A stretch of DNA of 64,000 nt, from the NCBI GenBank assembly GCA_937888435.1, contig CALAQS010000351.1, forward strand, positions 1,942-65,941, given 5' to 3'. Origin of the DNA: an uncultured Acidobacteriota bacterium. GTDB taxonomy: Bacteria > Acidobacteriota > Thermoanaerobaculia > UBA5066. Within the stretch, counting starts at the first letter, position 1. Each line of letters starts with the position of its first letter. Both the position numbers and the translations under genes were made by a program. Under the pieces are notes generated by a model. That model ran no database searches. It worked only from the letters and a program-made list of their open reading frames with translations, and was not told the origin of the DNA. This document shows, in pieces, positions 18,617-61,713 of this stretch.

Positions 18617-18658
18617 CGAAAGCGATTATGCCCTTCGCCGGACGCGCCGGGGGGGTCG

Positions 18659-19090: not shown

Positions 19091-19099
19091 CTCGCAACC

Positions 19100-21010
19100 T
19101 TATTTCTTCTGCTCCACGACCTCGGCGTCGATGACGTCGTCGGCCGGCTTGGATGAGGACGAATCGCCGGGCGTCTCGCCGCCCTCGCCCGCGGGGGCAC
19201 CCGCCGGGGCCGACTTGTAAAGCGCCTCGGCGATCTTGTAGCTGGCCTTCTGCAGATCGTGAGCCGCCTTCTTCAGCACCTCGGCATCGCCCGGGCTCGT
19301 CTCGAGGACCTTCTTCGCGTCGGCAACCGCCGACTTGACGGACTCCTTCTCCGACTCCGGCACCTTTTCGCCGCTCTCGTCCACGAGCTTCTCCGTCGAA
19401 TAGATGAGCGCGTCGAGCGCGTTCTTCGCCTCGATCGCCTCGCGCCGCTTCTTGTCCCCTGCGCTGTGCGACTCGGCGTCCTTGACGAGCTTCTCGACTT
19501 CCTTTTTGTCGAGGCCCGAGGACGACGTGATCGTGATTTTCTGCTCCTTGCCCGTGCCGCGATCCTTCGCCGACACGTTCAGGATCCCGTTCGCATCGAT
19601 GTCGAACGTGACCTCGACCTGCGGCATGCCGCGTGGCGCCGGCGGGATCCCCACGAGGGAGAAGACGCCGAGGAGCTTGTTGTCGCCGGCCATCTCGCGC
19701 TCGCCCTGGAGCACCTTGATCTCCACTGAGGTCTGGCCATCGGAGGCCGTGGAAAACGTCTCGGCCTTCTTCGTGGGAATCGTCGTGTTGCGGTCGATGA
19801 GCTTCGTCATCACGCCGCCGAGCGTCTCGACGCCCAGCGAAAGCGGCGTGACGTCGAGGAGAAGAAGGTCTTTCACGTCGCCCGCGAGGACGCCGCCCTG
19901 CAGGGCCGCGCCGATCGCGACGACCTCATCGGGGTTGACGGACTTGTTCGGATCCTTGCCGAAGAAGTCCTTCACGATCTGCTGGATCTTCGGCATGCGC
20001 GTCTGTCCGCCGACGAGAACCACCTCGTCGATCTTCGAGGCGTCGAGCCCGGCATCCTTGAGCGCCTGTCGGCACGGACCGACCGAGCGCTGCAGGAGAT
20101 CGTCGACGAGCGATTCGAGCTTCGCGCGCGTGAGCTTGATGTTGAGGTGCTTCGGCCCGGAGGCGTCCGCCGTGATGAAAGGGAGGTTCACGTCGGTCTC
20201 GACCGTCGTCGAGAGCTCGATCTTGGCCTTCTCGGCGGCTTCCTTGAGGCGCTGCGTCGCCATCGGGTCCTTCGAGAGGTCGATCCCCTGGTCCTTCTTG
20301 AACTCCGACTGGAGCCACTCGACGATCTTCTGGTCGATGTTGTCGCCGCCCAGGTGCGTGTCGCCGTTCGTCGACTTGACCTCGACGACGCCCTCGCCCA
20401 CCTCGAGGATCGAGATGTCGAACGTGCCGCCTCCGAAGTCGTAGACCGCGATCGTCTCGTTCTTTTTCTTGTCGAGGCCGTACGCGAGCGCCGCGGCCGT
20501 CGGTTCGTTCACGAGCCTCTCGACCTTGAGCCCCGCGATCTGGCCCGCGTCCTTCGTGGCCTGGCGCTGCGCATCGTTGAAATAGGCCGGCACCGTGATG
20601 ACGGCGCGGTCCACCTTCTCGCCGAGGTACGCCTCCGCGGCCTCCTTGAGCTTCGTGAGGATGATCGCGGAGATTTCCGGCGGAGACAGCTCTTTGCCGC
20701 CCACGGAGACGCGTGCGTCGCCGTTCGCGGAGCGAATGACCTTGTAGGGCACCATCTTCATTTCGTCGTTGACCTCGTCGAAGCGGCGGCCCATGAACCG
20801 CTTGATCGAGTACACGGTGTTCTCGGAGTTCGTCACCGCCTGGCGCTTGGCGACCTGCCCGACGAGGCGCTCGCCCGCTTTGGCGTAGGCGACGACGGAG
20901 GGCGTCGTGCGTCCCCCTTCCGAATTCGCGATGACCTCAGCCGTGCCGCCCTCGAGGACGGCGACGACGCTGTTCGTGGTGCCGAGGTCGATACCGATGA
21001 TCTTGCTCAT
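19100..21010 (-). CDS. dnaK: Molecular chaperone DnaK (Hsp70)
   Basis: 636 aa. Hsp70 signatures are [22 protein letters not shown] and [11 protein letters not shown]. An acidic C-terminal tail is present. Confidence 0.98.
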
Positions 21011-45579: not shown

Positions 45580-47367
45580 TCACCTGAGATAGCCGAGCGA
45601 CCTCAGGTTCTCGACGTACGCCTTCGGGTCCACCGAAAGATCGGAGCTCGCGCGCCTTCGCCCCCACGACGCCACCGTCTCGCCGCTGGCCGCGCCTGGC
45701 GCGAGGAGATCGCTTCGCACGCGTCCCGCGATCTCGCGTGATGCGGGAACGCCCAGAACCGAGAGGACCGTGGGCGCGAGATCCACCGGCGCGAACGTCG
45801 ATTCCGCGCCTCTCCTCGCGAGGGGCCCCGAGAGAAGCACGAAGCCGCCGCTCTCGTGCCGTCCCGCGTCGAGGACGAGGACGAGAAGATCGGGCACCGG
45901 CGTGAGGCCAGGGTCGAGCAGGAATGCGCGCAGGTTCGCCGTCTCCTCGGTCAGGGCCGCCGCGAGCGCGACGCGGTCCGCGGTTCCGCGCTCGGGGTCG
46001 AGGAGTCCGGACGACAGAATGTCGGGCCCGGGGAGGTAGAGAAGCGCGAGGCGCGGGCTGTCCCGGCGCCACGCATCGCGAAAGGCGGCGAGCGCGAAGG
46101 CATCGAGGCCGTGCGCGTCCGCCTCGAGACGCTCGAATGTGCCTGGCTCGGGCGCGACGCGCGGCGCGAGGCGCGCGGCGCGCTCGGTGGCGTCGGCGGG
46201 CCAGCCTTCGCCCGCGAGCGACCCGCCCGCGCGCGCGGCGAAGAAAAGGTGATTTCCGAGGATCGTCCCTCCGCCTTCTTCGGCCGGGTAGGTCGTCCAC
46301 CAGTTCACCGTGAGAGACGGAATCCCGCCGCGGCTCGCGACCTCCCACAGCGAAGGCACGCGCCTCGCGCCGGCCGTGACGGACTCGCGCCGCGCCAGGT
46401 GCAGAGCCGGCAGCACGTCCTTCAGGTACCAGCCGGCGCCCGCGAGAGGGCGTACGGGCGACCTCACGCCCAAAACGCGCACGAGGTCGAGGGAGCCGAT
46501 CCCGTGGCGCTTCACGCTTTCGCCGGTCGCGACCGTCGTCCAGAAGGCGGCCGGGTCCCGCGCCTCCTTCGTGTAGCGCGCGCGCGCCGCCCCTTCCCCC
46601 GGGAGACCTTCGGTCCAGCCGTCGACGCCCACCACGACGACGCGCCGCGCATTCGCCGCCACGACGAGAGGAGAGTCCCCGGCCGCCGGAACGCGGAAGA
46701 AGAGCGCGGAGATGCCGACGAGGACGAGCGTTCCTCCCGCGAGGGCCCACGCCACGAACGTGCGGCGCGGCCGCGTCACGAAGAGCCGGCCGGAGGCCGC
46801 GAGCACCGTGAAGGCGAGACCCCGCGCCACGCGCACGGCGATGAGCACCGCGAACGCGACGGCGAGGAGGACCGCCGCGGCGGCCGGCAGGCCCGCGCTC
46901 TCGAGCGCAGGACGCGCCGCGAGGACGCCCGCAACGCCGGCGAGAACGCCGAACGCCACCGCGATCTCCATGGAGCCCTCTTCCGCGTCGCCGTGAGCGC
47001 GGGCCCTCAGGAGCGCGAGCAGGACGAGCGCGAGGACGACGAGCGAGGCGACGGCCGCCGCGCCCGCGAAGAGCCAGAGAAAGAGCACCGCCGCGTCCCG
47101 GAGCGGCAGCGCCGAGGACACGGCGTGCAGAACCGTCTGCGCGAAGGCGACGGCGGCGGCGAGAAACGCAGCCCCTGTCGCCGCGCCGAGGAGAAACGCC
47201 CGGGTCCGGGTGCGCGCCGCGAGCGCGCCCTTGAGAACGGCGCCCTCGACGCCCCGGTCCAAATAGCCCCTCTCGCGCAGGCGCGCGCGGGCGGCGTCGA
47301 GCGAAAGCTCGACGCCAGAAGAGGATTTTTCTGCTCCCTCTCGCAGGGGATCGTCTCGCTTATCCAT
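45580..47367 (-). CDS. Polytopic membrane protein with a C-terminal alkaline-phosphatase/NPP-like domain that appears degenerate
   Basis: 595 aa. The N-terminal half has at least 5 TM helices. The domain shows VVVVGVDGWTEG, FWTTVATGESVKRHGI (compare NPP ...T.PNH....TG..P..HGI) and YLPGPDI. Confidence 0.6.
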   Translation of the reverse strand: MDKRDDPLREGAEKSSSGVELSLDAARARLRERGYLDRGVEGAVLKGALAARTRTRAFLLGAATGAAFLAAAVAFAQTVLHAVSSALPLRDAAVLFLWLFAGAAAVASLVVLALVLLALLRARAHGDAEEGSMEIAVAFGVLAGVAGVLAARPALESAGLPAAAAVLLAVAFAVLIAVRVARGLAFTVLAASGRLFVTRPRRTFVAWALAGGTLVLVGISALFFRVPAAGDSPLVVAANARRVVVVGVDGWTEGLPGEGAARARYTKEARDPAAFWTTVATGESVKRHGIGSLDLVRVLGVRSPVRPLAGAGWYLKDVLPALHLARRESVTAGARRVPSLWEVASRGGIPSLTVNWWTTYPAEEGGGTILGNHLFFAARAGGSLAGEGWPADATERAARLAPRVAPEPGTFERLEADAHGLDAFALAAFRDAWRRDSPRLALLYLPGPDILSSGLLDPERGTADRVALAAALTEETANLRAFLLDPGLTPVPDLLVLVLDAGRHESGGFVLLSGPLARRGAESTFAPVDLAPTVLSVLGVPASREIAGRVRSDLLAPGAASGETVASWGRRRASSDLSVDPKAYVENLRSLGYLR

Positions 47368-47430
47368 GCAACACAGACGTTACCGCACCGGTGGATTTTG
47401 CTTAGAAGGGGTGAGTGGGGCCGCAGCGGA

Positions 47431-49240: not shown

Positions 49241-50629
49241 ATGTTTCCCTCCACACTCATCCAGAAACGCGTACGCATGATACGCGAGCGCGGCGCGGGC
49301 CGTCCATCGATCCGGTCGCGCGGCCGGGGACTTCTCGCGGCGGTCCTCGCGGCGATCGTAGCGACCGCGGCGGCCGCGCCCGACCCGGCCGGGCGCCCCA
49401 TCGCCGAGCGCCTTCCGGAGGCGGTGGCCGGCGCCCAGAAGGTCGTCGAGAAAGTCCGGGGCGTGCCCTTCCCGGGAAAAGTGGCGTCGGCGATCCTGCA
49501 CGAGAAAGACCTTCGGCGGGTTCTCGGCCAGAAGCTCGTCGAGGACCTGCCCGCGCCTTTCCCCCGCTACGCGGCCTCCCTCGCGGCCGTTGGCTTCTTC
49601 GACCCCGAACCTCTCCTCGAGCAGAAGCTCACGACGCTCTACGCCCGCCAGGTCGCCGGCTTCTACGATCCCGCCAAGAAGAAGTTCTTCATCGTGCCCG
49701 AGCGCATGGCCGAGACGGCGGCCGGAACCCCCGAGCTGGGCCTCTCGGCGGAAGCCCTTCTCGAAGACACTCTTCTGGCTCACGAGCTGACGCACGCGCT
49801 ACAGGACCGCCGCCTCGACCTCGTCCCGCGGCTCAAGGCGCTGCATGATTCCTCCGACGGACTGCTCGCGCTCGAGGCCTTCCTCGAAGGCGAGGCCACC
49901 GTCGTGATGATGGACGCGCTCCTCACGCGATTGCCCGACGAGGCGAAGGAGCTTGTCGGCGCCGAGACCCTCACGACGATGATGTCCGGCCTCGCCGCGG
50001 GCGCCACGATCGAGGGCGGCGAGGGCGTGCCACCCTTCTTCGTCAAGGAGATGCTCTTCCCGTACGTCGGGGGGACGGCGTGGATACAGGCGAAAAAGAA
50101 GGTCGGCGGATGGCCCGCCGTGGACGCCGCGTACGCCAGGCCTCCCCGCACGACCTCCGAGATCCTCCACCCCGACCGGGCCGGCACCGCGCGCGTCGTC
50201 CTCGACCCCGGTGACCGCCCGTCGGCGGCGAGCGTCCCGCCCGGGATGCGTCTTCTTTACGAGGATACGTTCGGAGAGTGGATGCTCGGAGAGCTCCTGG
50301 AGCGCGCCGGAGCCGCGAACGCCGCCGCGCTCGCCGCCGAGTGGCAGGACGACCGCGTCGTCTTTTTCGAGCCGAAGGAGTCGCTGGGCGCGGGGCCTCT
50401 CCCGGTCGGGTTCGTCTGGCGCATGCGCCTGACGTCGCCGGCCGCCGCAAAGCGCATCGCGGCGGCTCTCGAGCGACTTTACGAGCGGCCGGATGGCCGG
50501 GAAGCCGCCAACGTGACCGCCATGGCTGACCGCGTGGAGGTCGTGCGCGGCCGCATGACCGCGACTCCTGGCCCGGACCGGACTCTCAGTTTCCAGCCAG
50601 CAGCTTCAGCGCCGCCGGAAGGAAGATGA
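49241..50629 (+). CDS. Secreted putative zinc metallopeptidase (HExxH), family not recognised
   Basis: 462 aa. It has a signal-like LLAAVLAAIVATAAAA and the motif LLAHELTHALQD, followed by FLEGEATVVM (a possible third ligand). The start is uncertain (49241 or 49277). Confidence 0.6.
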   Translation: MFPSTLIQKRVRMIRERGAGRPSIRSRGRGLLAAVLAAIVATAAAAPDPAGRPIAERLPEAVAGAQKVVEKVRGVPFPGKVASAILHEKDLRRVLGQKLVEDLPAPFPRYAASLAAVGFFDPEPLLEQKLTTLYARQVAGFYDPAKKKFFIVPERMAETAAGTPELGLSAEALLEDTLLAHELTHALQDRRLDLVPRLKALHDSSDGLLALEAFLEGEATVVMMDALLTRLPDEAKELVGAETLTTMMSGLAAGATIEGGEGVPPFFVKEMLFPYVGGTAWIQAKKKVGGWPAVDAAYARPPRTTSEILHPDRAGTARVVLDPGDRPSAASVPPGMRLLYEDTFGEWMLGELLERAGAANAAALAAEWQDDRVVFFEPKESLGAGPLPVGFVWRMRLTSPAAAKRIAAALERLYERPDGREAANVTAMADRVEVVRGRMTATPGPDRTLSFQPAASAPPEGR

Positions 50630-51368
50630 AGAGCTGAATGGCGTCGAACGTGCCGTGCGCGAAGATGGACGTGACGGCGTTCCCGGTCTTCGCGAAGGCC
50701 ACGGCGAGGACGGTCGTGATCGCGAGCAGCCCCACGAAAAAGAACGGCTCCCCATAGCCGGCGTGCGCGAGGAGGAAGAAGATCGAGGCGGGGACCGCCC
50801 CCAGGCGGCGCTGGAGAAACGACCGGAAGTGGAACTCCTCGAGCGTCATCGCCATCAGGACGAGAAGGCCGCGCTGCTCCGCCGGGCGCGAGGCCAGCCA
50901 GCTCACGAGCGGCGGCACCGCGCGGTGCGGGTCGTAATCGAAGACCCGGAACAGAAGTGCCGCGCCGATTCCCACGACGATCGTGAGCGTCCAGCCGACG
51001 AGGCCGAGAGCGACGCCCGCGCCGGCCTCGGCGAGCGGACGTTTCGTGTCGAGCCCGAGGAAGGAGGCCGGGGACGGCCTCCCGCTGAGAAACCACCACG
51101 CGAGGAGGAAGAACGCGAGGAGCGCCTGCACGGCGAACACCTGCGAGAACCGCAGGGACGAGACGTCGGGCGCTCGCCCTCCCGCGGCGGCGGGCAGGAG
51201 CGCCGTGGCGACGAGGACGAGGGCGAGGAGCAGGAGCGCCAAACGCTTTCTCCACGGAGACGAGAAGAGATCGCGCCGGAAGGCACCCCTGCGGTCGGCC
51301 ACGAAGACGATGGCGAAGACGAGCGGCAGTCCGGCGCCGAAAAGGAGAGATCTGTCGAGCGAGGTCAC
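50586..51368 (-). CDS. CPBP family intramembrane glutamic endopeptidase (CAAX protease-like)
   Basis: 260 aa and multi-TM. CPBP motifs are LEEFHFRSFL (EExxxR), FFLLAHAGY (FxxxH) and FAHGTFDAI (HxxxD/N). Confidence 0.8.
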   Translation of the reverse strand: MTSLDRSLLFGAGLPLVFAIVFVADRRGAFRRDLFSSPWRKRLALLLLALVLVATALLPAAAGGRAPDVSSLRFSQVFAVQALLAFFLLAWWFLSGRPSPASFLGLDTKRPLAEAGAGVALGLVGWTLTIVVGIGAALLFRVFDYDPHRAVPPLVSWLASRPAEQRGLLVLMAMTLEEFHFRSFLQRRLGAVPASIFFLLAHAGYGEPFFFVGLLAITTVLAVAFAKTGNAVTSIFAHGTFDAIQLFIFLPAALKLLAGN

Positions 51369-51396
51369 GCGTGGGAGCCCGGAGGGCGAGGAGACT

Positions 51397-52749
51397 CTAG
51401 CAGACGTCCTCGCGGGCGCCGCGCGCGCCGGGGCGCGTCACGACCGGGCGGGCGGCGGGGCGCCCGAGAAGGAAGCCCTGGCCCCATGGGACGCCGAGGC
51501 CGCGGAGGCTTTCCAGCTCGCCCCGCGTCTCGATGCCCTCGGCGATCAGCTCGGCGTCGATGCGCTCGCCGAGCGTCGCGAGCGAACCCACGATCTCGCG
51601 CTTGATCCGGTCCTCGTCGAGGCCCGCGACGAGCGTGTGGGCCACTTTCACGTACTCCGGCCGGAGCTGCGCGATGGACTCGAGGCCCGAGTAGCCCGAG
51701 CCCGCGTCGTCGATCGCGAATCCGAAGCCGGCCGCCCGCAGCCGCCCGACGACCTCGCGAAACGCCGGGTAATTGAAGACGACCTCCTTCTCCGAGAGCT
51801 CGAGAACGATGTCCCCGTGCACGCGGCCCATCTCGGCGAGATTGCGGTCGTCGAGGAACACCGAGTGCGTGAGAAGCCGCGCCGAAGCGTTCACGAACAG
51901 GCGCTTTTTGCGCGCGGCCTTGGGGAGCGACGAGAAGACCGTCTCGACGCACAGGCTCTCGAGCTCGAGGAGGAGGTCTCCCTCGCGCGCCACGGCGAAC
52001 AGCTCGTCGGGCATCTCGAGCTCGTGGCCCGCCGGCCCGCGGATGAGCGCCTCGTAGCCGAGGACCTCGCCCGAGGTCACGCCAACGATGGGCTGGAAAA
52101 CCGCGCGCAGCCTCTTCGCGGAAAGAAGGGCCTTCAGCCTCTCGACGAACGACTTCTTCTCACCGCTCTCGCGGGCGTCGGCGAGCCGCGCCGCCTCGGC
52201 GAGCGCGCGCATGACCTGCCGCGACGGCCGCACACGCGGATCGTCAGGAACCACGAGCGCGGTCGCGTGAATGTGCATGAGGTCGACGGCGGAGCGCCCG
52301 AGCGCCTGCTTCAGGCGGCGCCCGACGCCCTGGCGCAGGCGCGCGGCCTCCGCCTCCAGCGTGACGCCGTGCCGCCCGGGAGCGCGCCGCGCGACGTCGA
52401 AAAGAAGGAAGACTCCGTCGGAGCCGTTGAAGGACATCGCGAGGAGGCCCGGGGCGAGAGGCGAAGCCGTGATGTCCTCGCGAAGGCTCGCGGCCGTCAC
52501 GCGCAGGATCCGGTCGTAGAGCTCCCATCCGTAAAGGCTCTCGACGCCCGCGAAGCGCCCGAGCTGAATGTAGACGACTCCGAGGTTCGCGACGCGCTCT
52601 CCCTTTAGATCGGCGAAGGGGTGCAGGGTCAGACCCGTGACGGCGTCATGGAGCAGCGACTCGAGACGCAGCCTCTCGATCTCGGGCACGTCGACCGGCG
52701 ATCGCTCGCTCACGAGCTTCAGGGAATCTGTGCGCGGACCTTTCGTCAT
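51397..52749 (-). CDS. c-di-GMP phosphodiesterase: degenerate GGDEF domain plus EAL domain
   Basis: The likely start is ATG 52749 (MTKGPRTDSL), forming an ATGA overlap with the response-regulator stop. EAL blocks are FQPIV...GYEALIRGP, ELSEKE, FAIDDAGSGYSGL and EGIET. The N-terminal GGDEF-like fold has GSDGVF in place of GGDEF. Confidence 0.85.
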   Translation of the reverse strand: MTKGPRTDSLKLVSERSPVDVPEIERLRLESLLHDAVTGLTLHPFADLKGERVANLGVVYIQLGRFAGVESLYGWELYDRILRVTAASLREDITASPLAPGLLAMSFNGSDGVFLLFDVARRAPGRHGVTLEAEAARLRQGVGRRLKQALGRSAVDLMHIHATALVVPDDPRVRPSRQVMRALAEAARLADARESGEKKSFVERLKALLSAKRLRAVFQPIVGVTSGEVLGYEALIRGPAGHELEMPDELFAVAREGDLLLELESLCVETVFSSLPKAARKKRLFVNASARLLTHSVFLDDRNLAEMGRVHGDIVLELSEKEVVFNYPAFREVVGRLRAAGFGFAIDDAGSGYSGLESIAQLRPEYVKVAHTLVAGLDEDRIKREIVGSLATLGERIDAELIAEGIETRGELESLRGLGVPWGQGFLLGRPAARPVVTRPGARGAREDVC

Positions 52750-53135
52750 GATTCTCCTCTTCCCGGCCCGGATGCCATCAGGGCACGCACGCGCGCCCGC
52801 AGCTCCTCGGCCCGAAACGGCTTCGTCAAGTGGTCGGTTCCGCCGACCTGCATCGCGGTGATCCGGTCGCGCACGTCGCCGCGCCCCGTCAGGAAGAGGA
52901 CGGGCAGGTCGCGGGTGATCGGCTGGCGGCGCACGATCTCGCACAGCTCCCAGCCGGTCAGGCCGGGCATGCTGACGTCGAGGACCAAAAGCGCCGGCGG
53001 GTTTTTGAGGACGGCCCGGAGCGCGGCCGCGCTGTCGCTCGCCCCGTCCACCTCGAAGCCGTCGAGCGACAGGACCGCCGCCACCGCCTCGACCATCGCC
53101 GGGTCGTCGTCCACGACGAAGATGCGCCCGCTCAC
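52746..53135 (-). CDS. Single-domain response regulator (CheY-like receiver)
   Basis: The real 129-aa part of track ORF 52746..53969 starts at GTG 53135 (GTGA overlap with the kinase stop). It reads RIFVVDDDPAMV...LLVLDVSMPGLTGWEL...PVLFLTGRG...DHLTKPF. Confidence 0.9.
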   Translation of the reverse strand: MSGRIFVVDDDPAMVEAVAAVLSLDGFEVDGASDSAAALRAVLKNPPALLVLDVSMPGLTGWELCEIVRRQPITRDLPVLFLTGRGDVRDRITAMQVGGTDHLTKPFRAEELRARVRALMASGPGRGES

Positions 53136-54436
53136 GCGCCGGCCTCGCGGGAGACGGGAAACATGATCGTGACCTCGAGCCCGTGGCCGGGCTCGGAAAG
53201 GAGCGAGATCTTCCCCCCGTTCTTTTCGAGCAGGTCCTTCGTGACGCCGAGGCCGATTCCCCGCCCCGGCACGCCGGACGCCGACGCGGACGGGCTCCGC
53301 CAGGCGAACGTGAACGCGTGCTTCTGCTCCTCCGGCGTCATCCCGGCACCCGTGTCGCTGATCACGACGAACGCGTGCTGCGCGACGACGCTCGCCCTCA
53401 CGCGCACCTGCCCGCCCGCCGGTGTGTACTTGACCGCGTTGTCGAGCACGTTGCGGAACGCGCGCTGGAGCGCGACGGGATCCGCGGCGACCGGAATCTC
53501 CGCGCCTTCGGCGACGAACTCGAGGCGCACCCTTTCGCCGTGGGCAAGACGGTACGACTCGACGAGCGTCGAAAGAACGCGCACGAGATCGGAGCGAGGG
53601 CTGGGCGGAGTCGCGGGCGCGACGGGTGAGGACACGGACGGCGCGGATGCCGGCGCGCGCGGCGGCATGCCCGCGAGGGACTCCATGAGCGTCATCTCGC
53701 GTGCGAGGCCCGCGAGGTGCGCTTCCGAAGGCAGCTCGCCGCGGCGTGCCGCCTCGGCCACGAGGTCGCCGTACACGCGAAGGACGGTGAGCGGCGATTT
53801 CAGATCGTGAAGAATCTCGCTCCGCGGATCGCGCACCGCCGCAGGGCTCGCGGGCGCGCTCTCCACGGCCAGCCGGACGGGCGCAGACGCATCCTCCGTG
53901 CCGGAATTCCGCCCGGGCGCCGTCCAACGGAGAACGAGCTCGACTCCGAAGGCCGCCGCGGCCGGCCACAGAAAACGCAGTGCGTTTGACCGCGCGGCGG
54001 CGGCCGTGGGCGCCGGAAACAGGACGACGAGGAGAGCCAGGCCCGCGTACGTGCCCACGAGGAGGAAGCGCCCGCCCTCACGCGAGAGCGCCGCTTCGGC
54101 CGCAACGTAAACGACGAGGAGCGGAAAGAGGTCGCTCGAGGGGCCGCCCGTCTTCCCGAGCGCGACGAGCGCGAGGGCAAGCGGCACGAGAAGGCGCAGC
54201 GGCGCCGCGAACGGGCCCAGAAGCCGCGTTCCGAGAGAGGTTGCGAGGAGCCCGCCGAGGGCGAGCGCGGAGGCCGCGAGAGTCGCGACGGCCGGCACGT
54301 CGGCGGGCGCGACGGCTCCCGACGCGAGCAGGACGAGGAGGGACAGGGACAGGAGGGCGGGCCCGAAAAGGCCCGCCCCCGCGGCAGCGCTCAGCGGCGG
54401 GCGCCCGTCCAGATCGACCTCGGGAGACGCCCACAC
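53132..54436 (-). CDS. Membrane sensor histidine kinase (HisKA plus HATPase_c)
   Basis: 434 aa. The N-terminus has about 5 TM helices. The H-box is ILHDLKSPLTVL, the N-box is RNVLDNAVKYTP, and G-boxes are SDTGAGM and GRGIGLGV. Confidence 0.85.
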   Translation of the reverse strand: MWASPEVDLDGRPPLSAAAGAGLFGPALLSLSLLVLLASGAVAPADVPAVATLAASALALGGLLATSLGTRLLGPFAAPLRLLVPLALALVALGKTGGPSSDLFPLLVVYVAAEAALSREGGRFLLVGTYAGLALLVVLFPAPTAAAARSNALRFLWPAAAAFGVELVLRWTAPGRNSGTEDASAPVRLAVESAPASPAAVRDPRSEILHDLKSPLTVLRVYGDLVAEAARRGELPSEAHLAGLAREMTLMESLAGMPPRAPASAPSVSSPVAPATPPSPRSDLVRVLSTLVESYRLAHGERVRLEFVAEGAEIPVAADPVALQRAFRNVLDNAVKYTPAGGQVRVRASVVAQHAFVVISDTGAGMTPEEQKHAFTFAWRSPSASASGVPGRGIGLGVTKDLLEKNGGKISLLSEPGHGLEVTIMFPVSREAGA

Positions 54437-54445
54437 GCCGAACGC

Positions 54446-55546
54446 TCAATGCACATAGGCGCAGCCGACCCGCATGCGGCCGTCCGAAAGGGGGACCGTG
54501 TTCACCCTCCGCATCGCCACGCGATGCGGTTCGCCGCTGTACCGCTGCAAGATCTCGCCCTCGAGCCGGTCGGGCGTTTTTTCCCGGGACGTGACGAACG
54601 CGAGCCCGCCATAAGAGATGTCGTGCACCTCCGCGAGCGCGCCCCGGCGCGCGCCGCGGCCGCCCATCTTCAGCGTCAGGCCCGGCACGCAAAAGCGCGG
54701 AAAGCGCCGCGTCCTCTCGAACGGCTTCGCGTTCTGGCGCTTCGAGGCGTAGAGGCGAATGTCGCTGATCTTGAGGAGGAAGTCGAGCAGGCGGCCATCC
54801 GTCGGGAACGTCGCGAGCCCGTAGTTGAGCCCCACCTTGAGGCCGACGCGAAGCGGAAGCCGGATGCCCGCCACCTTGTGCCGGATGCGCTCGGCGACGG
54901 CGAGACTGTTCACGACGTCGCTGTTCGGGAGCACGGTCACGAACTCGTCGCCACCGTACCGGCAGCCCGCGTCCACGACGCGCAGCGACTCGCGGATGAC
55001 CTTCGCCGTGCGCACCAGAACTCCGTCACCCACCGGGTGGCCGAGACGGTCGTTGATGGACTTGAAGCCCGCGAGATCCATCATGAGGACCGAGACGACG
55101 CCGCCCGCGCGCTCGGCACGTGAGACCTCGCGGTCGAGGTGGTCGTGGAGGAAGCGGCGGTTGTAAAGGCCCGTGAGCGGGTCCGTGATCGCGTTCACGC
55201 GAAGCGCCGAGATCTCGTTGTCGGACAGGAGGCGCGGCTCCTTCAGCTTTCCGAGCCGGCTGTGGAACTCGTGAAGAAGAGCCGTCTGGAGCGACACGGG
55301 CGCCCCGAGCGCGCTCTCCATCTTCTCGAATGCGCGCTCCACGCGCGCCCACAACGGCGGCACGTCGTTCACGGGAACCGTCACGCCGATCCACTCCACG
55401 AGGAGAAGGCGAAGGAGCTCGGTGCGCGTGACGCCCTCGCTCGCGGCGCCGAGATCGCGCTCGAAGCGCTCACGCGAGAAGCCCCGGGCGCGCCCGAGGC
55501 GAGCCAGCCGGAATACCCGGGCGGAGAGATCCTTTTCGGGCACCAT
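54446..55546 (-). CDS. Diguanylate cyclase (active GGDEF with I-site) fused to a C-terminal PilZ domain
   Basis: The likely start is ATG 55546 (MVPEKDLSARV). It has DPLTGLYNRRF and the RVVDAGCRYGGDEF block (RxxD I-site 5 aa before GGDEF). The C-terminal PilZ motifs are RRFPR (RxxxR) and DISYGG (DxSxxG). Confidence 0.85.
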   Translation of the reverse strand: MVPEKDLSARVFRLARLGRARGFSRERFERDLGAASEGVTRTELLRLLLVEWIGVTVPVNDVPPLWARVERAFEKMESALGAPVSLQTALLHEFHSRLGKLKEPRLLSDNEISALRVNAITDPLTGLYNRRFLHDHLDREVSRAERAGGVVSVLMMDLAGFKSINDRLGHPVGDGVLVRTAKVIRESLRVVDAGCRYGGDEFVTVLPNSDVVNSLAVAERIRHKVAGIRLPLRVGLKVGLNYGLATFPTDGRLLDFLLKISDIRLYASKRQNAKPFERTRRFPRFCVPGLTLKMGGRGARRGALAEVHDISYGGLAFVTSREKTPDRLEGEILQRYSGEPHRVAMRRVNTVPLSDGRMRVGCAYVH

Positions 55547-55550
55547 TTGT

Positions 55551-56054
55551 TCAGGCGTGGCGCCGGGCCGAGACGGCGCCCACGAGGCCGCCCTCCTCTT
55601 CGCGCGCGAGAGACTCCGCCGCGCGCGCGACGTCCTCCACGGTCTCACCCACCGGGAAGACGAGCATGAGCTGGCCACCGTGGAGGAGATCCACGAGCTC
55701 GCTGTCCGTCCGGGCCCACAGGACGTGTCCCTGCGCGACGAGCAGACGCGCACCGGCGACGTCGGGCTTCGAAGGGTCGAGGCGCCGAAGCGTCGCCACG
55801 ACGCGACGGACTTCCGACAGGCCGAACCCGGCGGCGCGCAGCCGGCCCGCGACGCGGAGCCGCACGACGTCGCCGAACGAATAGCGGCGCTTCGAGCCGT
55901 ATCCGGCGGCGCCCGCGAGAGACGGCGAGAAAAACCCGAGCCGGTCCCAGTGATCGAGCTGACGCGCTGAGAGCCCGGTCAGCCGCGCAACCTGCGCCGT
56001 CGAGAACGAAGCCTGAAGGATCCGGCGATTGAATTTCACGGGTGTAGTTTCCAA
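55551..56054 (-). CDS. MerR family transcriptional regulator
   Basis: 167 aa. The MerR HTH is FSTAQVARLTGLSARQLDHWDRLGFFSPS...RRYSFGDVVRLRVAGRLR. It is the first gene of the minus-strand c-di-GMP operon. Confidence 0.8.
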   Translation of the reverse strand: METTPVKFNRRILQASFSTAQVARLTGLSARQLDHWDRLGFFSPSLAGAAGYGSKRRYSFGDVVRLRVAGRLRAAGFGLSEVRRVVATLRRLDPSKPDVAGARLLVAQGHVLWARTDSELVDLLHGGQLMLVFPVGETVEDVARAAESLAREEEGGLVGAVSARRHA

Positions 56055-56168: not shown

Positions 56169-57086
56169 ATGCGTGAAGAGCTGAGCCGGATCGATCTGTC
56201 CCCCATCGCCGACCTCGTGCGGATCAAGAAAGAGGAGCAGCTCCTCGCGGAGCGCCTGAAGAGCATGGAAATCCGCGCGGAGAAAGTGTCGTCGGCCGTC
56301 TACGAGCGGGTCCGAAAGGACTACGAGACGAGGCGGTTGGCGCTCGAGCAGGAGTCGCGGCCTCTCAAGGAGCAGGCGCGCCGTGAGTACCGGCGGCTTC
56401 AGGCCCTCCGGCGCGAGGTCGAGCAGGCTGTCGAGGCCGCGTCGTTCGACAAGGAGGAGGTCGAATTCCGCCGTGAGCTCGGCGAGCTCCCGGACGGCCT
56501 CTACAAGGAGCGGATTGCCGCCTGCGAGAAGCACCTCGCCGACGAACGCCAGGATCTCGAGGCGGTCCTGCAGATGAAGGCCACGTTCCTCGACGCGTTC
56601 CGGTCCGAGGAGGACCTCGAGACGCCGGACTCCGGCTCCGAAGGACCTGCTCCTCCGGCCCCGCGGCCCCCCGTGCGACCTGCGCCTTCGGCCCCGCCGG
56701 CCCCCTTTCCCGTCGAGAACGTCATCAAAGCGCCGCCTCCGTTCGAGAAGGCGCCTGCCGCGGCCCCGCCCGAGCCCCCGGACGCCACGGTCGTCCTGAC
56801 GCGGGCCCGCCTCTCGCTCCTGGACGGGGACAGGATCGCGAAGGAGTTCCCGCTGAAGCCCGGTGTCTCCATCCTCGGGCGCCTCGCTCTGAGCGACGTC
56901 CATCTGCCGACCCCCGACGTGTCGCGCAAGCACGCGCAGGTGATCGTCGGGCCGTCCGGCGTGTTCGTGGTCGACCTCGAGTCGGAGAACGGCGTCGTCG
57001 TGAACGGCAAGAAGGTGGACAAGGTTCAGCTCGTGGAAGGCGACGTGCTCACGCTCGGCAAGCAGCGGCTCGTCTTCCACGACTGA
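56169..57086 (+). CDS. FHA-domain protein with N-terminal coiled coil and Pro-rich linker
   Basis: 305 aa. The C-terminal FHA domain is SILGRLALSDVHLPTPDVSRKHAQVIVGPSGVFVVDLESENGVVVNGKKV...GDVLTLG. The N-terminal 150 aa are heptad-like and charged. Confidence 0.8.
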   Translation: MREELSRIDLSPIADLVRIKKEEQLLAERLKSMEIRAEKVSSAVYERVRKDYETRRLALEQESRPLKEQARREYRRLQALRREVEQAVEAASFDKEEVEFRRELGELPDGLYKERIAACEKHLADERQDLEAVLQMKATFLDAFRSEEDLETPDSGSEGPAPPAPRPPVRPAPSAPPAPFPVENVIKAPPPFEKAPAAAPPEPPDATVVLTRARLSLLDGDRIAKEFPLKPGVSILGRLALSDVHLPTPDVSRKHAQVIVGPSGVFVVDLESENGVVVNGKKVDKVQLVEGDVLTLGKQRLVFHD

Positions 57087-57152: not shown

Positions 57153-59297
57153 GTGCAAGAGCCTGAGGGAATCGAGACCGCGCGACTTCTGCCGCCGGTG
57201 GGGGCGAATGCCCCCTTCGGCCTGCACCTCCTCCTGGATGTCTCGGGCGAAAGCCGTGAGCGGTCGCCGTTCGTGCGACTCTCGGAGTCCGACGACCTCG
57301 CGCGCGTCTTCCTGGCCGCGGTGAAGGGGGATGACGGCACCCTCCTCGAGCTTTGTGCGCTGAAGCTGATGCCGGACGCCTGGCCGGACGGCGTGACGCC
57401 GGGCGCGCTCGACATGACGAACCGCGATCTCGAGGACCGCTGGGACAGAGAGAAATCACGTCTCGTCGACCTGCGTGCGCTGTCGTCGCACTTCCCGCGC
57501 CTCATCCGCCTGGACGCCCCGGCGGGAAAAACAGCGGACCGCCTTCCACCGCTCCTCTATTCGCGTGCGGGGCGCTCGTTCTTCGTCCCGCCCTGCCCCG
57601 GCTGCAGGAGCCCGCTCTCGCTCTGTCGCGACGAGGCGTGGCTCGCGCGCACCGGCCTCCCGTCCTTCGCCTCGTCGCGGGAGCGCTTCGTCTGGTGCGA
57701 AAGCTGCGCCAAGGGACCCGGGGCGCCGACGGTTTACACGACGTCGCGGATCAGCACGCCGGGCGCTACCGTCCGCTCCGCCACCGACCTTCTCGACGAC
57801 CTGGGCCACGCGCTTCGCGAGGTCTGGACGGAGGAAGAGGCAACCGCCCTGGTCGGCACGGAAACCGCAAAGGCGGTGCGCTCCCTTCCCGCGGCCGCGG
57901 CTGGCGGCGCGAGCGCCCGGGATCTCTTCACGCCGCTGACCTTCTACGGGTCGCCCTTCCTCGTGACCGTGGCGGCCCCCCTCGACCTCGAAGCGCTCGC
58001 CGATGCGCTCGGCGGCCGGCCCTGGGAGGAGTTCGAGGTCCGAAGTGCAGGCACGGGCGGAGGGCTCCCCACGCGCTGGGCGTGGCTCGTGAGGGCGCCT
58101 GCGCCAACCCGACGGCTCCTCTTCGCTGAGGAGAGCTCCGGCCTCGATGCCGTCGAGATCTTCTTCCTGAAGCTGACCGCGTTCCGCCAGATCCTCGAAG
58201 GCCTCATCGACTATTACCGGGCCGCCGGACGCCCGCACCTCGACCTCCACCCCCGCCACCTCCTCTTCGAGCTTTCGGGAGCCGGCGACGGCCTTCCCCT
58301 CTTCTGGACGTTTCAGGCGCGGATCCACGGCCTGGCCGCAGCCGCGGTGACGCTCCCCGCCCCGGGATCGCCGTCGGTCGTCCTGCCCGGACAGGGGCTG
58401 GCCATTCCCTATGCGGCCCCCGAGATCCAGGAGTTCCGCCTGGCCGGATACCGGCCGTGTGAGCTCGTCTTCACCGACCTCGACGAGGACGGGACGGGAT
58501 CGCGGCGCTTCCGGCTCCGCGGCCGCGTCTCCGATGCGTACGGCCTCTATCCCTCGCCGCAGCCGCGCGACACGATCTTCCTGTCGGTCCCGGACCCGAC
58601 TCTCGACCTCGGCTTCACCGGCCTCGCCGTCCGGGCGACGCCCGGAGAGATCCGCTCGGACGAGGCGGCGTTCGCGAGCGACCTCGTCGCACTCGAGGAG
58701 AACGGCCTGCGCCGTCTCCGCCTCGCGCTCGGCACGAAGATTCCCGGGGCCCGCTATCGTGTCTTCCCGGATTTCGGCACGCCGAGCGACCTGCACGCTC
58801 TCGGCGTCTCCCTGCTCCGCCTGCTGCTTCGAAACGACGGCCAGGATGTCGCCGCCGTCCTCAGGGCGGCCGACCGGCTCACTCGAGAGGTCGCGGCGCT
58901 CGGGCCCGGCGAGGCCCGGCGGAACGTCACGCTCGCCACACTCCTCAAACGCGTTCCGGACGCGGCGCCCGTTTTCTCGAAGACGCAGATTTTCTGGGGC
59001 CATGACGACCGCCGCGCCGACCGGCCGAATGCCGTTCCGGAGACGCTCTGGGAACGGGCGGTCCTCCTCGCGCTCCGCCTCGTCACGCGCGTCGCGGGCT
59101 TCTCGGTCGCGGCCTCTCCCGCCGACTTCGATCCGCTCTTCCGGGAAGAGAAGCTCGAACGGATCGTCCCCGAGGTCGTGTCGCTCCTCGCCGAGCTGCA
59201 CTCTCTCCTCTTCGAGCGACAGTCGGTGCATCTCGAGATCCAGCAAGTCCTCGCCGAGATCCAGGAGAGCGAGCGTCTCTCCGAGGCGCGCCCGTGA
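57153..59297 (+). CDS. Cytoplasmic protein-kinase-fold protein with degenerate catalytic motifs (predicted pseudokinase) and a Cys-rich insert
   Basis: 714 aa with a GTG start. Kinase-like landmarks are LCALKLM (VAIK-like, K71), DREKSRLVDLRALSSHFPRLIRL (helix C / HPNIV-like), GRPHLDLHPRHLLF (HRDLKPxN-like, 362-371), ARIHGLA in place of DFG, YAAPE (APE) and PSDLHALGVSLLRLL (subdomain IX). The Cys insert is CPGC..C...CESC (148-185). No TM segment. The coding call is confident; the functional call is inference. Confidence 0.6.
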   Translation: MQEPEGIETARLLPPVGANAPFGLHLLLDVSGESRERSPFVRLSESDDLARVFLAAVKGDDGTLLELCALKLMPDAWPDGVTPGALDMTNRDLEDRWDREKSRLVDLRALSSHFPRLIRLDAPAGKTADRLPPLLYSRAGRSFFVPPCPGCRSPLSLCRDEAWLARTGLPSFASSRERFVWCESCAKGPGAPTVYTTSRISTPGATVRSATDLLDDLGHALREVWTEEEATALVGTETAKAVRSLPAAAAGGASARDLFTPLTFYGSPFLVTVAAPLDLEALADALGGRPWEEFEVRSAGTGGGLPTRWAWLVRAPAPTRRLLFAEESSGLDAVEIFFLKLTAFRQILEGLIDYYRAAGRPHLDLHPRHLLFELSGAGDGLPLFWTFQARIHGLAAAAVTLPAPGSPSVVLPGQGLAIPYAAPEIQEFRLAGYRPCELVFTDLDEDGTGSRRFRLRGRVSDAYGLYPSPQPRDTIFLSVPDPTLDLGFTGLAVRATPGEIRSDEAAFASDLVALEENGLRRLRLALGTKIPGARYRVFPDFGTPSDLHALGVSLLRLLLRNDGQDVAAVLRAADRLTREVAALGPGEARRNVTLATLLKRVPDAAPVFSKTQIFWGHDDRRADRPNAVPETLWERAVLLALRLVTRVAGFSVAASPADFDPLFREEKLERIVPEVVSLLAELHSLLFERQSVHLEIQQVLAEIQESERLSEARP

Positions 59298-61234
59298 GCC
59301 AGCCCGCCTTCTTCGCCGTCGAGGTCTGGCTCGGACCGATGGAAGGGCTTCGCTACGTCACACCGGCCGGGAATGCGCCGGTCACGATCCACATCGGTCG
59401 GGTCTCCGTGGACAAGAAGACGAACACGAGGAACGAGTTCGTCCTCTCTTACGGCCATGGCGTCTCGTCGACCCACGCGGAGCTCCGCTTAGAGCGGGGC
59501 CGGCTCTTCCTGAAGGATGCCGGGTCGACGAACGGGACCTCCGTCCAGTCCGGTCAGGTCACCGGCGAGGCCGAGATCCGTTCGGGCGACGTCTTCCTCG
59601 TCTCCTCGACGCCGGTCAGGGTCCGGCTCGTCGACGCGCCGCTTCCGGAGATGCCCTTCCCGCGCGTTCTCCGCGGAGAGGCGTGGCCGGACCCGGCAGT
59701 TCAGAGCATCGTGCGCGGAGCCCGCGAAGCGGCCGTGCAGCGCGGCGAGCTGTTCACCGACACGCGCCATCTCTGCGACGCGATCCTCCGCTCGCGCAGC
59801 GCGAGCATCCAGCGGATCCTGAGGGACGCAAGCTGGTCGCGCGAGCAGGCGCTGGCGGAGCTGTGGGAAGGCCGCCTCTTCGCGGGCCCCTACACGTGGC
59901 TCAACGACCTCTTCCTGCAGCCGATCGGCCTCAAAACCGGCTCCGACGAGCTGATCCTCTCGCCCAAGGTCGGCTTCCTTCTCGAGGAGTGCCAGCGCCG
60001 GTCCATCGAATCTTCGGCGATGGACCTCGAGACGACGCTCCGACACGAGCTGTTGACGCTGCTCAGGCAGGACGCGGAAAGCGCCGTGGGCTCGTGGCTC
60101 GCCCGGCGGCTTCCGGGCCTCGCCGCCAAGGAAGAGCCGCCGCCAAAACCGCCGTCATCCCCCCGCCCTTCGCCGCCCGCCGACGCGCCGCCGTCCGGGC
60201 CCGAGACCCGGCGCCCGCCTTCACAGAGGACGAAGCCCGTGAGAGCCGCGGAGGTCTTCGTCGACCGCGTCGCGGACCTTCTCACCAAAGACGAGAAGGT
60301 CCCGACTGCCCCCACGCCGCCGCCGGTCGAAAGGGCGGGCCCTGGGGCCGCGCTCGCCGGCGCTCCGCTCACCGAGGAGGAGATCGCTCTCGACCGGAAG
60401 GCGCGAGAGCTCGGCGACGCGCTCCTGCGCGAGTCTGCCGCCTACCGCTTCTCGACGCCGGCCGACCGGCGCGAGGCCCTCAGGTCGCTCGTCGTGAAGG
60501 AGCTTCACGCTCTCCAACCCGCCGGGAGGCCACGCGTCCTGGAGCAGTTGAGGCTGCAGTTTCCCATCGTCGCGCCGGGCGACGTGCCAAACCTCGAGGA
60601 GCTCCGGCTCCGGCGCCGCGTAGCCGAGCTGGAACGGCGCCTCGCCGAGGCGGCCTCCCGGCCAGCCGCGGCCGCGTCCAAATCGGCCGTCGCCGCGTCT
60701 CTGCCGTGGCGGACCTTGCTGACGCCGGAGGACGGCAAGGCCTCGACCTTAGAGCCCCGGCTCGCTTTCCTCCGCGATGTCCTCCGCTTTGCCCAGGACG
60801 TCGAGACGTTCACCCTCGGCCTCGTCGAAGCGATGACGATGCCGGGCGCCGAGACCGCGAACTTCCGCCTGCCTAACTTCCGCGACCGGCTGAGCGTCTT
60901 CTTCGCCGCTGCCGCCGAGGGGAAGGACGTGAACCCGGACGACGTGCGGGACTACCTCGCCGAGCTGCGGCGCTGGCAGATCGCCATTTCGGCGGGGCAT
61001 CACGAGGCGCCGAAGTTGTGGTTCACCAAGCTCTGGAAGAGAATCAGCCCGGCAGTCATCGAAGCGGGGAAACCGGAAGCGGGGTGGAAGCTCCGCGGGG
61101 AGACGGCGGAATGGTGGAACCAGTATCGCGACCTCGTGAAGGACCTCAACCCCGATCTCGTCCAGGATCAGGTTCTTCAGGCCGCGGCGCACTTCTCGCA
61201 GGCGGAATTCCAGAAACTCAACAAAAGGAAGTAG
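59294..61234 (+). CDS. tagH: T6SS-associated FHA protein (TagH/Fha-like) with an internal Clp-N-like double repeat
   Basis: 646 aa with a GTGA overlap with the upstream gene. The N-terminal FHA domain is IHIGR...VSSTHAELRLERGRLFLKDAGSTNGTSV. Residues about 133-272 resemble two Clp_N repeats. A Pro-rich linker follows. The C-terminal about 160 aa (RRWQIAISAGHHEA...LWKRISP...AEWWNQYRDL...FSQAEFQK) resemble the TagH C-terminal domain. Its position just before tssJ matches fha1-tssJ-tssK-tssL-tssM loci. Confidence 0.7.
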   Translation: MSQPAFFAVEVWLGPMEGLRYVTPAGNAPVTIHIGRVSVDKKTNTRNEFVLSYGHGVSSTHAELRLERGRLFLKDAGSTNGTSVQSGQVTGEAEIRSGDVFLVSSTPVRVRLVDAPLPEMPFPRVLRGEAWPDPAVQSIVRGAREAAVQRGELFTDTRHLCDAILRSRSASIQRILRDASWSREQALAELWEGRLFAGPYTWLNDLFLQPIGLKTGSDELILSPKVGFLLEECQRRSIESSAMDLETTLRHELLTLLRQDAESAVGSWLARRLPGLAAKEEPPPKPPSSPRPSPPADAPPSGPETRRPPSQRTKPVRAAEVFVDRVADLLTKDEKVPTAPTPPPVERAGPGAALAGAPLTEEEIALDRKARELGDALLRESAAYRFSTPADRREALRSLVVKELHALQPAGRPRVLEQLRLQFPIVAPGDVPNLEELRLRRRVAELERRLAEAASRPAAAASKSAVAASLPWRTLLTPEDGKASTLEPRLAFLRDVLRFAQDVETFTLGLVEAMTMPGAETANFRLPNFRDRLSVFFAAAAEGKDVNPDDVRDYLAELRRWQIAISAGHHEAPKLWFTKLWKRISPAVIEAGKPEAGWKLRGETAEWWNQYRDLVKDLNPDLVQDQVLQAAAHFSQAEFQKLNKRK

Positions 61235-61239: not shown

Positions 61240-61713
61240 ATGCCGACCTTCGACGAAAAGCCCGACCGGTGCGTCCGACTCGCCGTCCTCGCCCTCGCGG
61301 TCGCCGGTGCCGCCTTTGCCGCAGGGTGTGGCTCTTCCGCGGCGAAGGTCTCATTCACCTGCGCACCCGAGATCAACGGCGGAACGCTCCTCACGGTCGA
61401 CGTCGTCCGGGCCACCGAGCCCGAAGTCGAGAGGATCCGTGCCCTCGGCGAAAAGTGGTTCTACGACCCGCTCCGGGACTCCCTCAGAGACAGGACGCGG
61501 ACCGCAACCTTTTCGCAGTCCGAGGGGCGCTGCGAGAAGGAGCTGACCGTCCCGGCGACCAAGGATGACAAGTTTCTCGTGATCGTCGCGGACTACCGCT
61601 TCCAGACCGCCGACCCGGGACGCTACCTAGTCGTCCTGCGCAGGGATCAATGGAAGGGCCGGACGATTCGGGTCCAGGTCCGCGACCGGGACTTCTCGAT
61701 CATCCAGCCGTGA
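61240..61713 (+). CDS. tssJ: Type VI secretion lipoprotein TssJ
   Basis: The real 157-aa part of track ORF 61018..61713 has the lipobox AFAAGCGSS. The beta-sandwich pattern is LLTVDVVRATE...F...KFLVIVADYRFQ. Small size and its position before tssK support the call. Confidence 0.75.
   Translation: MPTFDEKPDRCVRLAVLALAVAGAAFAAGCGSSAAKVSFTCAPEINGGTLLTVDVVRATEPEVERIRALGEKWFYDPLRDSLRDRTRTATFSQSEGRCEKELTVPATKDDKFLVIVADYRFQTADPGRYLVVLRRDQWKGRTIRVQVRDRDFSIIQP

Follow-up and report, generated by a model that had tools for sequence, protein, structure and literature searches.

A predicted kinase-fold protein with a degenerate active site encoded beside TagH in type VI secretion loci of Acidobacteriota

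The window analysed here is a stretch of 64,000 nucleotides of contig CALAQS010000351.1, from an uncultured Acidobacteriota bacterium, and its 3' end carries an operon for the membrane complex of a type VI secretion system (T6SS). Gene X, the subject of this report, is the open reading frame (ORF) at 57153-59297 on the forward strand, which starts with GTG and encodes 714 amino acids (aa); gene callers predict the same ORF in four near-identical metagenome contigs (including L001, L011 and L012). On balance we favour the reading that X is a T6SS accessory partner of TagH and, in this clade, a non-catalytic pseudokinase scaffold. Judged from profile alignments and a structural model, X is built on the eukaryotic-like protein-kinase fold. 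A sequence-only reading of the window had called it a pseudokinase or a highly atypical kinase, and the present analysis supports that description, with the fold present and the residues for ATP and Mg binding lost.

The kinase fold was examined with family profiles (A1, A2 and A5, the last a 62-sequence alignment) and a kinase reference profile of PKA, PknB and CDK2, whose sequences were validated against the PDB at E ~1e-125. After excision of its two inserts, the family core aligned colinearly with the kinase profile in hhalign over 184-248 columns at 97.5 % probability (P = 5e-12), and every landmark residue fell in colinear order; the control, the same kinase profile in reverse, gave P = 0.81. 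Taken segment by segment, the signal was found in the N-lobe (P = 4.9e-4), from helix E to DFG (P = 1e-5) and in helix F (P = 1.5e-5), and the inserts and the C-terminal tail gave P values of at least 0.15 (0.46 for insert 1 and 0.78 for insert 2). The unsplit family profile aligned with the kinases on helix F alone (probability 32 %), as the local alignment is interrupted by both inserts. The subdomains of a bilobal kinase, namely the beta3 Lys, helix-C Glu, catalytic loop, DFG, APE and helix-F Asp, are thus found in colinear order.

Structure searches pointed the same way. In profile searches of the PDB, protein kinases made up 21 of the 22 weak matches with A1 and seven of eight with A2, at marginal E-values of 0.03-0.06, and these matches align on helix E, the catalytic loop, beta7-8/DFG and helix F; a single-sequence PDB search with X gave no significant match. 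An AlphaFold2 (AF2) model of X built from 30 homologues reached a predicted local distance difference test score (pLDDT) of 82 and a predicted template-modelling score (pTM) of 0.82. Foldseek matched this model to the kinase domains of IRAK4, JAK3 and TYK2 with target-normalised template-modelling scores (TM) of 0.54-0.61 over ~650 alignment columns and probabilities up to 0.99; with the full model there was no match at E <= 1e-3, owing to the inserts, and the kinase signal came through TM-score and probability only. The structure prediction and Foldseek search that the sequence-only reading had proposed as checks therefore returned kinase domains, and its claim of a kinase fold holds. The Pfam scan that it had also proposed left X unmatched: the 714-aa protein has no Pfam or NCBIfam match, and no match to Pkinase (PF00069) at E <= 1. 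Across 62 diverse family members, Pkinase was the sole Pfam family to match the shared core (5 members, best E = 6.8e-6, all below threshold), and one family member scored individually on Pkinase reached 24.3 bits against a cut-off of 31.7. The segments and landmarks of gene X are as follows, all on the forward strand.

57153..59297 (+): whole gene X, which leads the conserved genes of the T6SS membrane-complex operon; predicted soluble kinase-fold protein with a degenerate active site
57153..57572 (+): N-lobe, aa 1-140, with five beta strands, helix C and two short strands in the AF2 model
57363-57365 (+): K71, the beta3 Lys, kept; paired by hhalign with PKA K72
57450-57452 (+): E100, the helix-C Glu, kept; paired by hhalign with PKA E91
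57573..58124 (+): inserted domain 1, aa 141-324, with a Cys4 cluster and the CRD and LGG motifs
58125..58448 (+): C-lobe part 1, aa 325-432, with helix E, the catalytic loop, the DFG-equivalent and the APE-like Y420-A-A-P-E424
58236-58259 (+): catalytic loop H362-L-D364-L-H366-P-R-H369; hhalign pairs HLDLHPRH with YRDLKPEN
58326-58337 (+): DFG-equivalent, H392 / G393-L394-A395; hhalign pairs GLA with DFG
58449..58763 (+): inserted domain 2, aa 433-537, a beta-rich module that separates APE from helix F
58764..59147 (+): C-lobe part 2, aa 538-665, with helix F (P-S-D-L-H-A-L-G; D546 and G551 invariant), then helices G to I
59148..59294 (+): C-terminal long helix, aa 666-714 (AF2 helix 666-712), which has no kinase counterpart

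Every motif quoted in the sequence-only reading was located in the translation of X: CALK (with K71), DREKSRL (with E100), SSHFPRLIRL (111-120), HLDLHPRHLLF (362-372), IHG (391-393), YAAPE (420-424) and DLHALGVSLL (546-555). Beyond K71 and E100, hhalign pairs the active-site positions of X with those of PKA in the following way.

D364 with D166: catalytic Asp, kept
H366 with K168: catalytic-loop Lys, replaced
H369 with N171: Mg-binding Asn, replaced
H392 with T183: position DFG-1
G393 with D184: DFG Asp, replaced
YAAPE with YLAPE: APE motif
D546 with D220: helix-F Asp

The Gly-rich loop GxGxxG is also missing, as LSESDDLARV aligns with GTGSFGRV and Asp47 falls at the second, conserved Gly. X thus departs from the catalytic-loop pattern [HY]RDxKxxN by having both Lys and Asn replaced by His next to a retained Asp, and from DFG by the loss of the Mg-binding Asp. 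The degenerate site that had been described (His366, His369, Gly393 and Asp47 in place of the canonical residues) was confirmed in this alignment. Of the two outcomes that the sequence-only reading had named as overturning it, a missing kinase fold and a canonical set of catalytic residues, neither was observed. That reading had taken IHG as the DFG equivalent; the loss of the Asp stands, and the register was off by one, since both the family alignment and hhalign place DFG at G393-L394-A395 and H392 at DFG-1. A pseudokinase is a kinase-fold protein short of one or more of the catalytic Lys, Asp and Asp; X, as far as its sequence tells, is one that probably lacks phosphotransfer activity.

The second line of evidence is the position of the gene. 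In the window clade the operon reads FHA305 - X - TagH646 - 157-aa lipoprotein (in the TssJ slot) - TssK - TssL - TssM - TagF - Hcp - Hcp, where TssM, TagF and the two Hcp genes lie past the end of the window and were read from identical contigs. The neighbours of X within the window are these.

56169..57086 (+): extra FHA protein (FHA305), 305 aa, whose charged, coiled-coil-like N-terminus is joined through a Pro-rich linker to an FHA domain at the C-terminus (E = 6e-15)
59294..61234 (+): TagH/Fha-like protein (TagH646), 646 aa, with an N-terminal FHA domain (E = 3.1e-10) and a weak C-terminal T6SS_FHA_C match (E = 0.0046)
61240..61713 (+): 157-aa lipoprotein in the TssJ position, with signal peptide LAVAGAAFAAGC and lipobox LAAGC
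61710..63080 (+): TssK, Pfam T6SS_VasE at E = 4.9e-83, gene call in L011
63073..63756 (+): TssL (DotU), from gene calls in matching contigs

The stop codon of X overlaps the start of TagH in the 4-bp sequence GTGA (59294-59297), which suggests translational coupling. The same gene order without FHA305 occurs in relatives of 40-43 % identity (L003 and L010), and the distant locus L024 has X - 248 aa - TssJ - TssK - TssL - TssM - TagF - ImpE - TssA. Canonical members of the family, at ~25 % identity, are embedded in the T6SS clusters of a Phycisphaeraceae metagenome-assembled genome (MAG) and of another MAG. A metagenome scan with the family-specific helix-F motif added 40 further distant loci, of which 27 were informative, having at least 3 kb of downstream sequence. 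FHA/TagH or TssK stood immediately 3' of X in all 27, and TssK followed by TssL and TssM lay downstream in 25 of them, often with TssA; TssB/TssC were frequently divergent and upstream of X in these distant metagenome loci. The slot directly upstream of FHA/TagH-(TssJ)-TssK-TssL-TssM is therefore shared by the window, L001-L004, L010-L012, L024 and 25/27 metagenome loci. Co-occurrence with tssJKLM, which had been put forward as a check, is borne out by this synteny, and natural fusions to TagH strengthen the link to FHA and the T6SS.

These fusions join the X core, an FHA domain and T6SS_FHA_C (TagH) in a single polypeptide, and they account for 5 of the best 147 representatives (P0177, P0198, P0221, P0230 and P0231). 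The Pfam scan of the 62 diverse members also returned FHA in five, Yop-YscD_cpl in five (the same FHA region), T6SS_FHA_C in four and one stray family. When TagH646 was compared by BLASTP with the FHA part of the fusion P0198, the match was weak and confined to the FHA domain (E = 0.024), so the orthology of TagH rests on domain architecture and not on sequence.

X had been described as wedged between two FHA genes. Both neighbours do encode FHA domains, and the pThr (phosphothreonine)-binding signature GR...SxxH...NG is intact in both; the conserved partner is the downstream TagH only, and the upstream FHA gene is confined to close relatives, being present in L001, L002, L011 and L012 and missing upstream of X in L003, L010, L013 and L024. 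FHA305 is read from its sequence as a putative clade-specific second phosphothreonine reader. The search for a PknB-like kinase gave none in the window and none in the T6SS-linked loci of the family, and control-locus kinases were detected by the same means. A tblastn search with a PP2C query found no PP2C in the window or in T6SS-linked loci within about 10 kb, and did detect one in the unrelated L020; nor were T6SS, kinase or phosphatase genes found in the window from 1 to 56 kb. These kinase and phosphatase negatives cover the window and the sampled loci as opposed to the rest of the genome.

The family to which X belongs is large and has no model in Pfam or NCBIfam. A word-indexed search returned 104 homologues, all "hypothetical" and mostly from Thermoanaerobaculia, where their names place the window too, and an exhaustive profile search of 1.84 billion representatives returned 1,308 clusters (50 % identity) at E <= 1e-3, including 713 at E <= 1e-30. 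A profile search of a 5.8-billion-protein index with A2 recovered only the close clade already in hand, and a search with the canonical member P0127 gave 12 matches. Source names were "hypothetical protein" throughout, with a single outlier named "serine/threonine protein kinase" by the Joint Genome Institute (JGI) in the cluster of P0127. In the profiles A1, A2 and A5 the family architecture consists of an N-lobe, a Cys-rich domain (CRD, LGG), a C-lobe (PHL), a beta domain with an invariant Asp, a PxDLxxLG helix F and a helical tail, and X has all of these.

Catalytic residues were counted in the best 147 of the 1,308 representatives. The full set K-E-D-K-N-D (HLDLKPEN; I-D-L/F-G/A-S) was kept in six; the beta3 Lys was present in 72 and the helix-C Glu in 66, the catalytic Asp was often Asn, Gly or Ala, and the remaining representatives were degenerate in many different ways. 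Among the 38 sampled metagenome members, which all occupy the same slot in T6SS operons, none was catalytically canonical. D546, by comparison, was invariant in all 140 aligned representatives, and PHL, Gly551, Trp385 and Trp633 were nearly invariant in the best 147. The residues conserved family-wide (E335, D473, D546, G551, P361-H362-L363, W385 and W633) are not the canonical phosphotransfer residues, and their role would be structural. In the window clade the signature K-D-H-H-H at positions 71, 364, 366, 369 and 392 is common to 88/104 close homologues. A conserved Thr that could serve as FHA ligand was sought in X and none is conserved family-wide; T272 is conserved in the close clade only and sits in a predicted beta-strand.

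Some members stand apart. A contig scan with the catalytic-loop pattern of profile A4 returned mostly ordinary kinases, with true members in L013 and L014 only and not in L015-L022. A W-type subfamily (P0104), in which K71 is replaced by Trp, had no T6SS genes on its contigs, which are short. Several members, in L043, L048, L050, L052, L053, L056 and L057, measure ~375-490 aa from stop to stop and seemingly lack the N-lobe with the T6SS context kept; they may be a truncated subfamily or frameshift products. In L025 (344-9296, reverse strand) the 917-aa member P0266 adjoins, in divergent orientation, two gene pairs, each of an FHA protein and a giant canonical Pkinase (1,482 and 1,032 aa); the contig, of 15.8 kb, shows no T6SS gene. 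At 31 % identity X comes after a fused TssB-TssC gene, and in Thermoanaerobaculaceae relatives the X homologue lies directly 3' of one ORF with both the VipA (TssB) and the VipB (TssC) domain, a fused sheath gene (L005, 8210-9994; L006, 349-2052).

Overlapping genes, an adjacency that is nearly universal and recurrent fusions are well-established signs of a physical complex, and from them we infer that X binds TagH. Conservation in the family lies off the phosphotransfer set, and in most members at least one essential catalytic residue is missing, so the function is most likely non-catalytic; X would also have a role in the control of assembly. X and TagH would form a stable complex, co-translated from overlapping genes and made as one polypeptide in some lineages. 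Together with TagH, X would dock on the TssJ/K/L/M platform and license or position T6SS assembly, with TagF, from the same operon, as its likely antagonist. In the window clade the kinase domain would not transfer phosphate and would instead be a scaffold, either a rigid one for interactions or an allosteric one. The family, of which X is the founding example here, is probably a dedicated accessory of a T6SS lineage that occurs in Acidobacteriota (Thermoanaerobaculia), in Planctomycetota/Phycisphaerae and in further uncultured bacteria, its breadth past the first two phyla being drawn from metagenome contigs.

Several observations weigh against a purely non-catalytic X. The family includes a few fully canonical members, so activity presumably exists within it, and two of these (P0173, from a Phycisphaeraceae MAG, and P0127) combine an X-like architecture with a T6SS context. 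X itself retains K71, E100 and the catalytic Asp364. In the clade, conservation of H362, D364, H366, P367 and H369 stays at 90 % or more as identity falls to 25 %, a constraint on the active site that a pure scaffold would not obviously need, and this tight conservation of HLDLHPxH leaves room for an atypical activity. Finally, the FHA domains on both sides keep their pThr signature, which implies that a kinase acts somewhere, and the cluster has no kinase-like gene other than X.

The same observations are the case for X as an atypical active Ser/Thr kinase, either Mg-independent or using His366, His369 and His392 for Lys, Asn and Asp, an explanation that we regard as unlikely and yet take most seriously among the alternatives. 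X would then replace PpkA in the cytosol and make pThr ligands for both FHA proteins on X, TagH or TssL. To the aligned Asp364, Lys71 and Glu100, the HLDLHPxH...H motif held tightly in the clade and the intact GR/SxxH/NG of both FHA domains can be added the lack of any other kinase or phosphatase in the cluster and the presence of fully canonical relatives inside T6SS clusters. There is also a precedent in CASK, which lacks the Mg-binding Asn and the DFG Asp (GFG) and is still active without Mg, and the substitutions of X at these two positions recall it. However, X has lost its Gly-loop (Asp47) together with three further ATP/Mg elements, the catalytic-loop Lys, Asn and DFG Asp, and in most of the family even the catalytic Asp is gone with the operon position unchanged. 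No PP2C partner that could reverse phosphorylation was found in the window or the T6SS-linked loci, and some T6SSs run TagH without a cognate kinase, as in V. cholerae (PMC10482370).

A bolder proposal goes further and is, in our judgement, rather unlikely: the family would be a core accessory module, not recognised before, of a widespread T6SS lineage outside the Proteobacteria, and in the window clade its ATP site would have been rebuilt into a conserved Asp/His centre (D364, H366, H369 and H392), serving Mg-independent phosphotransfer or the binding of a metal or ligand; X would be a new kind of cytosolic trigger on TagH, and thereby on T6SS firing, that replaces the membrane-bound PpkA/PppA. 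Related to it is the improbable alternative that X is a pseudokinase switch sensing a ligand or metal, in which the His pocket (H362, H366, H369 and H392, with D364) or the zinc ribbon gates the release of TagH and assembly. The coordinated His residues at the Lys, Asn and DFG-1 positions in 88/104 homologues and a redox-sensitive Cys4 cluster conserved across the family speak for such a switch; it is, however, purely inferential, and sister clades with the same operon context carry Ser, Gln or Leu at the His positions.

It is very improbable that X is an effector secreted by the T6SS and carrying a kinase-like toxin domain. Kinase-fold effectors are known in other secretion systems and X does lie in a T6SS locus, but it heads a membrane-complex operon and has no VgrG, PAAR or immunity genes beside it; in several lineages it forms one protein with TagH, a cytoplasmic regulator, and its synteny is strictly conserved, unlike variable effector cargo. 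Least credible of all are an ordinary PpkA/TagE-type kinase, which would also adjoin Fha in a T6SS cluster and is refuted by the missing transmembrane and periplasmic domains, the missing Pkinase match and the non-canonical catalytic residues, and a chance resemblance without kinase fold, which the lack of a Pkinase Pfam match might suggest and which the contrast between the hhalign result and its reversed control, the near-exclusive kinase matches in the PDB and the TM of ~0.6 exclude.

The regions of X outside the kinase core define the family and are not specific to the window clade, in the case of both inserts. The sequence-only reading had noted one Cys-rich insert after the hinge; the first insert was confirmed, with Cys at 148, 151, 158, 182 and 185, and a second one, beta-rich and covering aa ~433-537, had been overlooked. 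Insert 1, which separates the N-lobe from helix E, carries a Cys4 zinc-ribbon-like cluster, C148-P-G-C151 ... C182-x-x-C185, at 57594-57707, together with the near-universal family motifs C158-R-D160 and L-G-G287-288 and a disordered stretch at aa 295-320. Its sole zinc-ribbon Pfam match is weak (Lar_restr_allev, E = 0.044), and modelled alone it reached pLDDT 77 and had no fold match in the PDB (best E = 2.6). A second Cys cluster, PCxxCx5C, is present in insert 1 of most other clades (A2/A5) and lost in the window clade. Insert 2 has AF2 strands at 437-538 with pLDDT about 90, and its D473 is invariant in A5; small beta-barrel matches from Foldseek (SIP/FNR-type and Sen1) may belong to this insert. 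The C-terminus is helical in the AF2 model, as had been proposed. X was also held to be soluble, without transmembrane helix or periplasmic domain, and this agrees with a top 19-residue Kyte-Doolittle mean of 1.73, whose peak falls in an Arg-containing amphipathic helix that is buried in the model.

Among the neighbouring genes, the 157-aa lipoprotein has no Pfam match, and the gene in the same slot of L024 matches T6SS-SciN/TssJ; by its sequence and position the lipoprotein is probably a highly divergent TssJ. The TagH of the 43 %-identity relative (L010, 12385-14352, forward strand) has a weak Clp_N match between its FHA and C-terminal domains, and Clp_N is absent from the TagH of the window at E <= 1. 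In L013, from Phycisphaeraceae, there are two tandem TssC (VipB) paralogues (16359-19625, forward strand), the second with an insertion that gives a weak RanBP-type zinc-ribbon match, and a gene for an extracytoplasmic function (ECF)-type sigma factor lies between the X homologue and TssA. Directly upstream of the operon in the window, and divergent from it, a block at ~50586-56054 on the reverse strand encodes a MerR regulator, a GGDEF protein whose tail weakly resembles PilZ, a histidine kinase, a response regulator, an EAL protein and a Rce1-like protease, which could be a cyclic di-GMP input to T6SS expression. Further upstream (45580-47379, reverse strand) is a 599-aa ORF with a strong bias in third-position GC content (GC3, 0.86) and no Pfam match.

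Nearly all that is understood of the post-translational control of T6SS assembly comes from one proteobacterial pathway, PpkA-PppA-Fha/TagF, and the family of X bears on the question of how Fha/TagH works without PpkA. For T6SS researchers it is a large unannotated group and a near-obligate neighbour of TagH, a new candidate accessory component, and it offers a natural series from a canonical kinase to multiple independent pseudokinase states in one operon context. A new profile model for the family would improve the annotation of T6SSs in metagenomes. With an architecture of two inserts that is unique to it, X probably represents a new family in the protein-kinase-like superfamily and a T6SS accessory partner of TagH that had gone unrecognised.

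Compared with known systems, X resembles PpkA/TagE in having a kinase fold, in its place in a T6SS cluster beside TagH and in the same operon as TagF, and both would presumably act post-translationally on T6SS assembly. PpkA, however, belongs to the canonical Hanks kinases (Pfam Pkinase), has a transmembrane helix as well as a domain in the periplasm, and has a PP2C phosphatase, PppA, as its partner, whereas X is soluble, has no Pkinase match, lacks the Gly-loop, Lys, Asn and DFG Asp, contains two inserts and has no PP2C nearby. Within its own family, the canonical P0173 and P0127 keep K-E-D-K-N-D (HLDLKPEN, IDLxS) and a weak Pkinase score (24 bits), where X has His, His and Gly. CASK is similar in its substituted Asn and DFG Asp (to Gly) and in keeping the catalytic Asp, beta3 Lys and helix-C Glu; it retains the Gly-rich loop and the catalytic-loop Lys, both lost in X, and it belongs to an unrelated lineage whose biology is not secretion.

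The sequence-only reading knew of no such T6SS accessory protein, and our full-text literature searches likewise found no pseudokinase or atypical kinase described as a T6SS component. A 2026 review of T6SS accessory factors gives TagE/PpkA as the only Ser/Thr kinase component and does not mention a pseudokinase (PMC13584744), and a review of T6SS regulation names PpkA/TagE as the sole kinase, with V. cholerae using TagH without a kinase (PMC10482370). The best functional analogy comes from the secretion system of type VIIb (T7SSb), where the pseudokinase EssB/YukC binds the FHA domains of EssC/YukB independently of phosphorylation and serves as an assembly and interaction hub (PMC9600267). 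Here too a degenerate kinase-fold protein is joined with an FHA protein in a secretion machine. EssB differs in that its pseudokinase domain is small (about 200 aa) and carried on a transmembrane helix with an extracellular domain, in Bacillota, and no EssB/YukC chains were among the PDB profile matches at E <= 10 (A1) or E <= 1 (A2); the FHA domains of EssC/YukB have lost their pThr-binding residues, whereas those beside X have kept them. The parallel between X with TagH and the pseudokinase-FHA hub of T7SSb suggests a recurrent design principle in the assembly of secretion systems.

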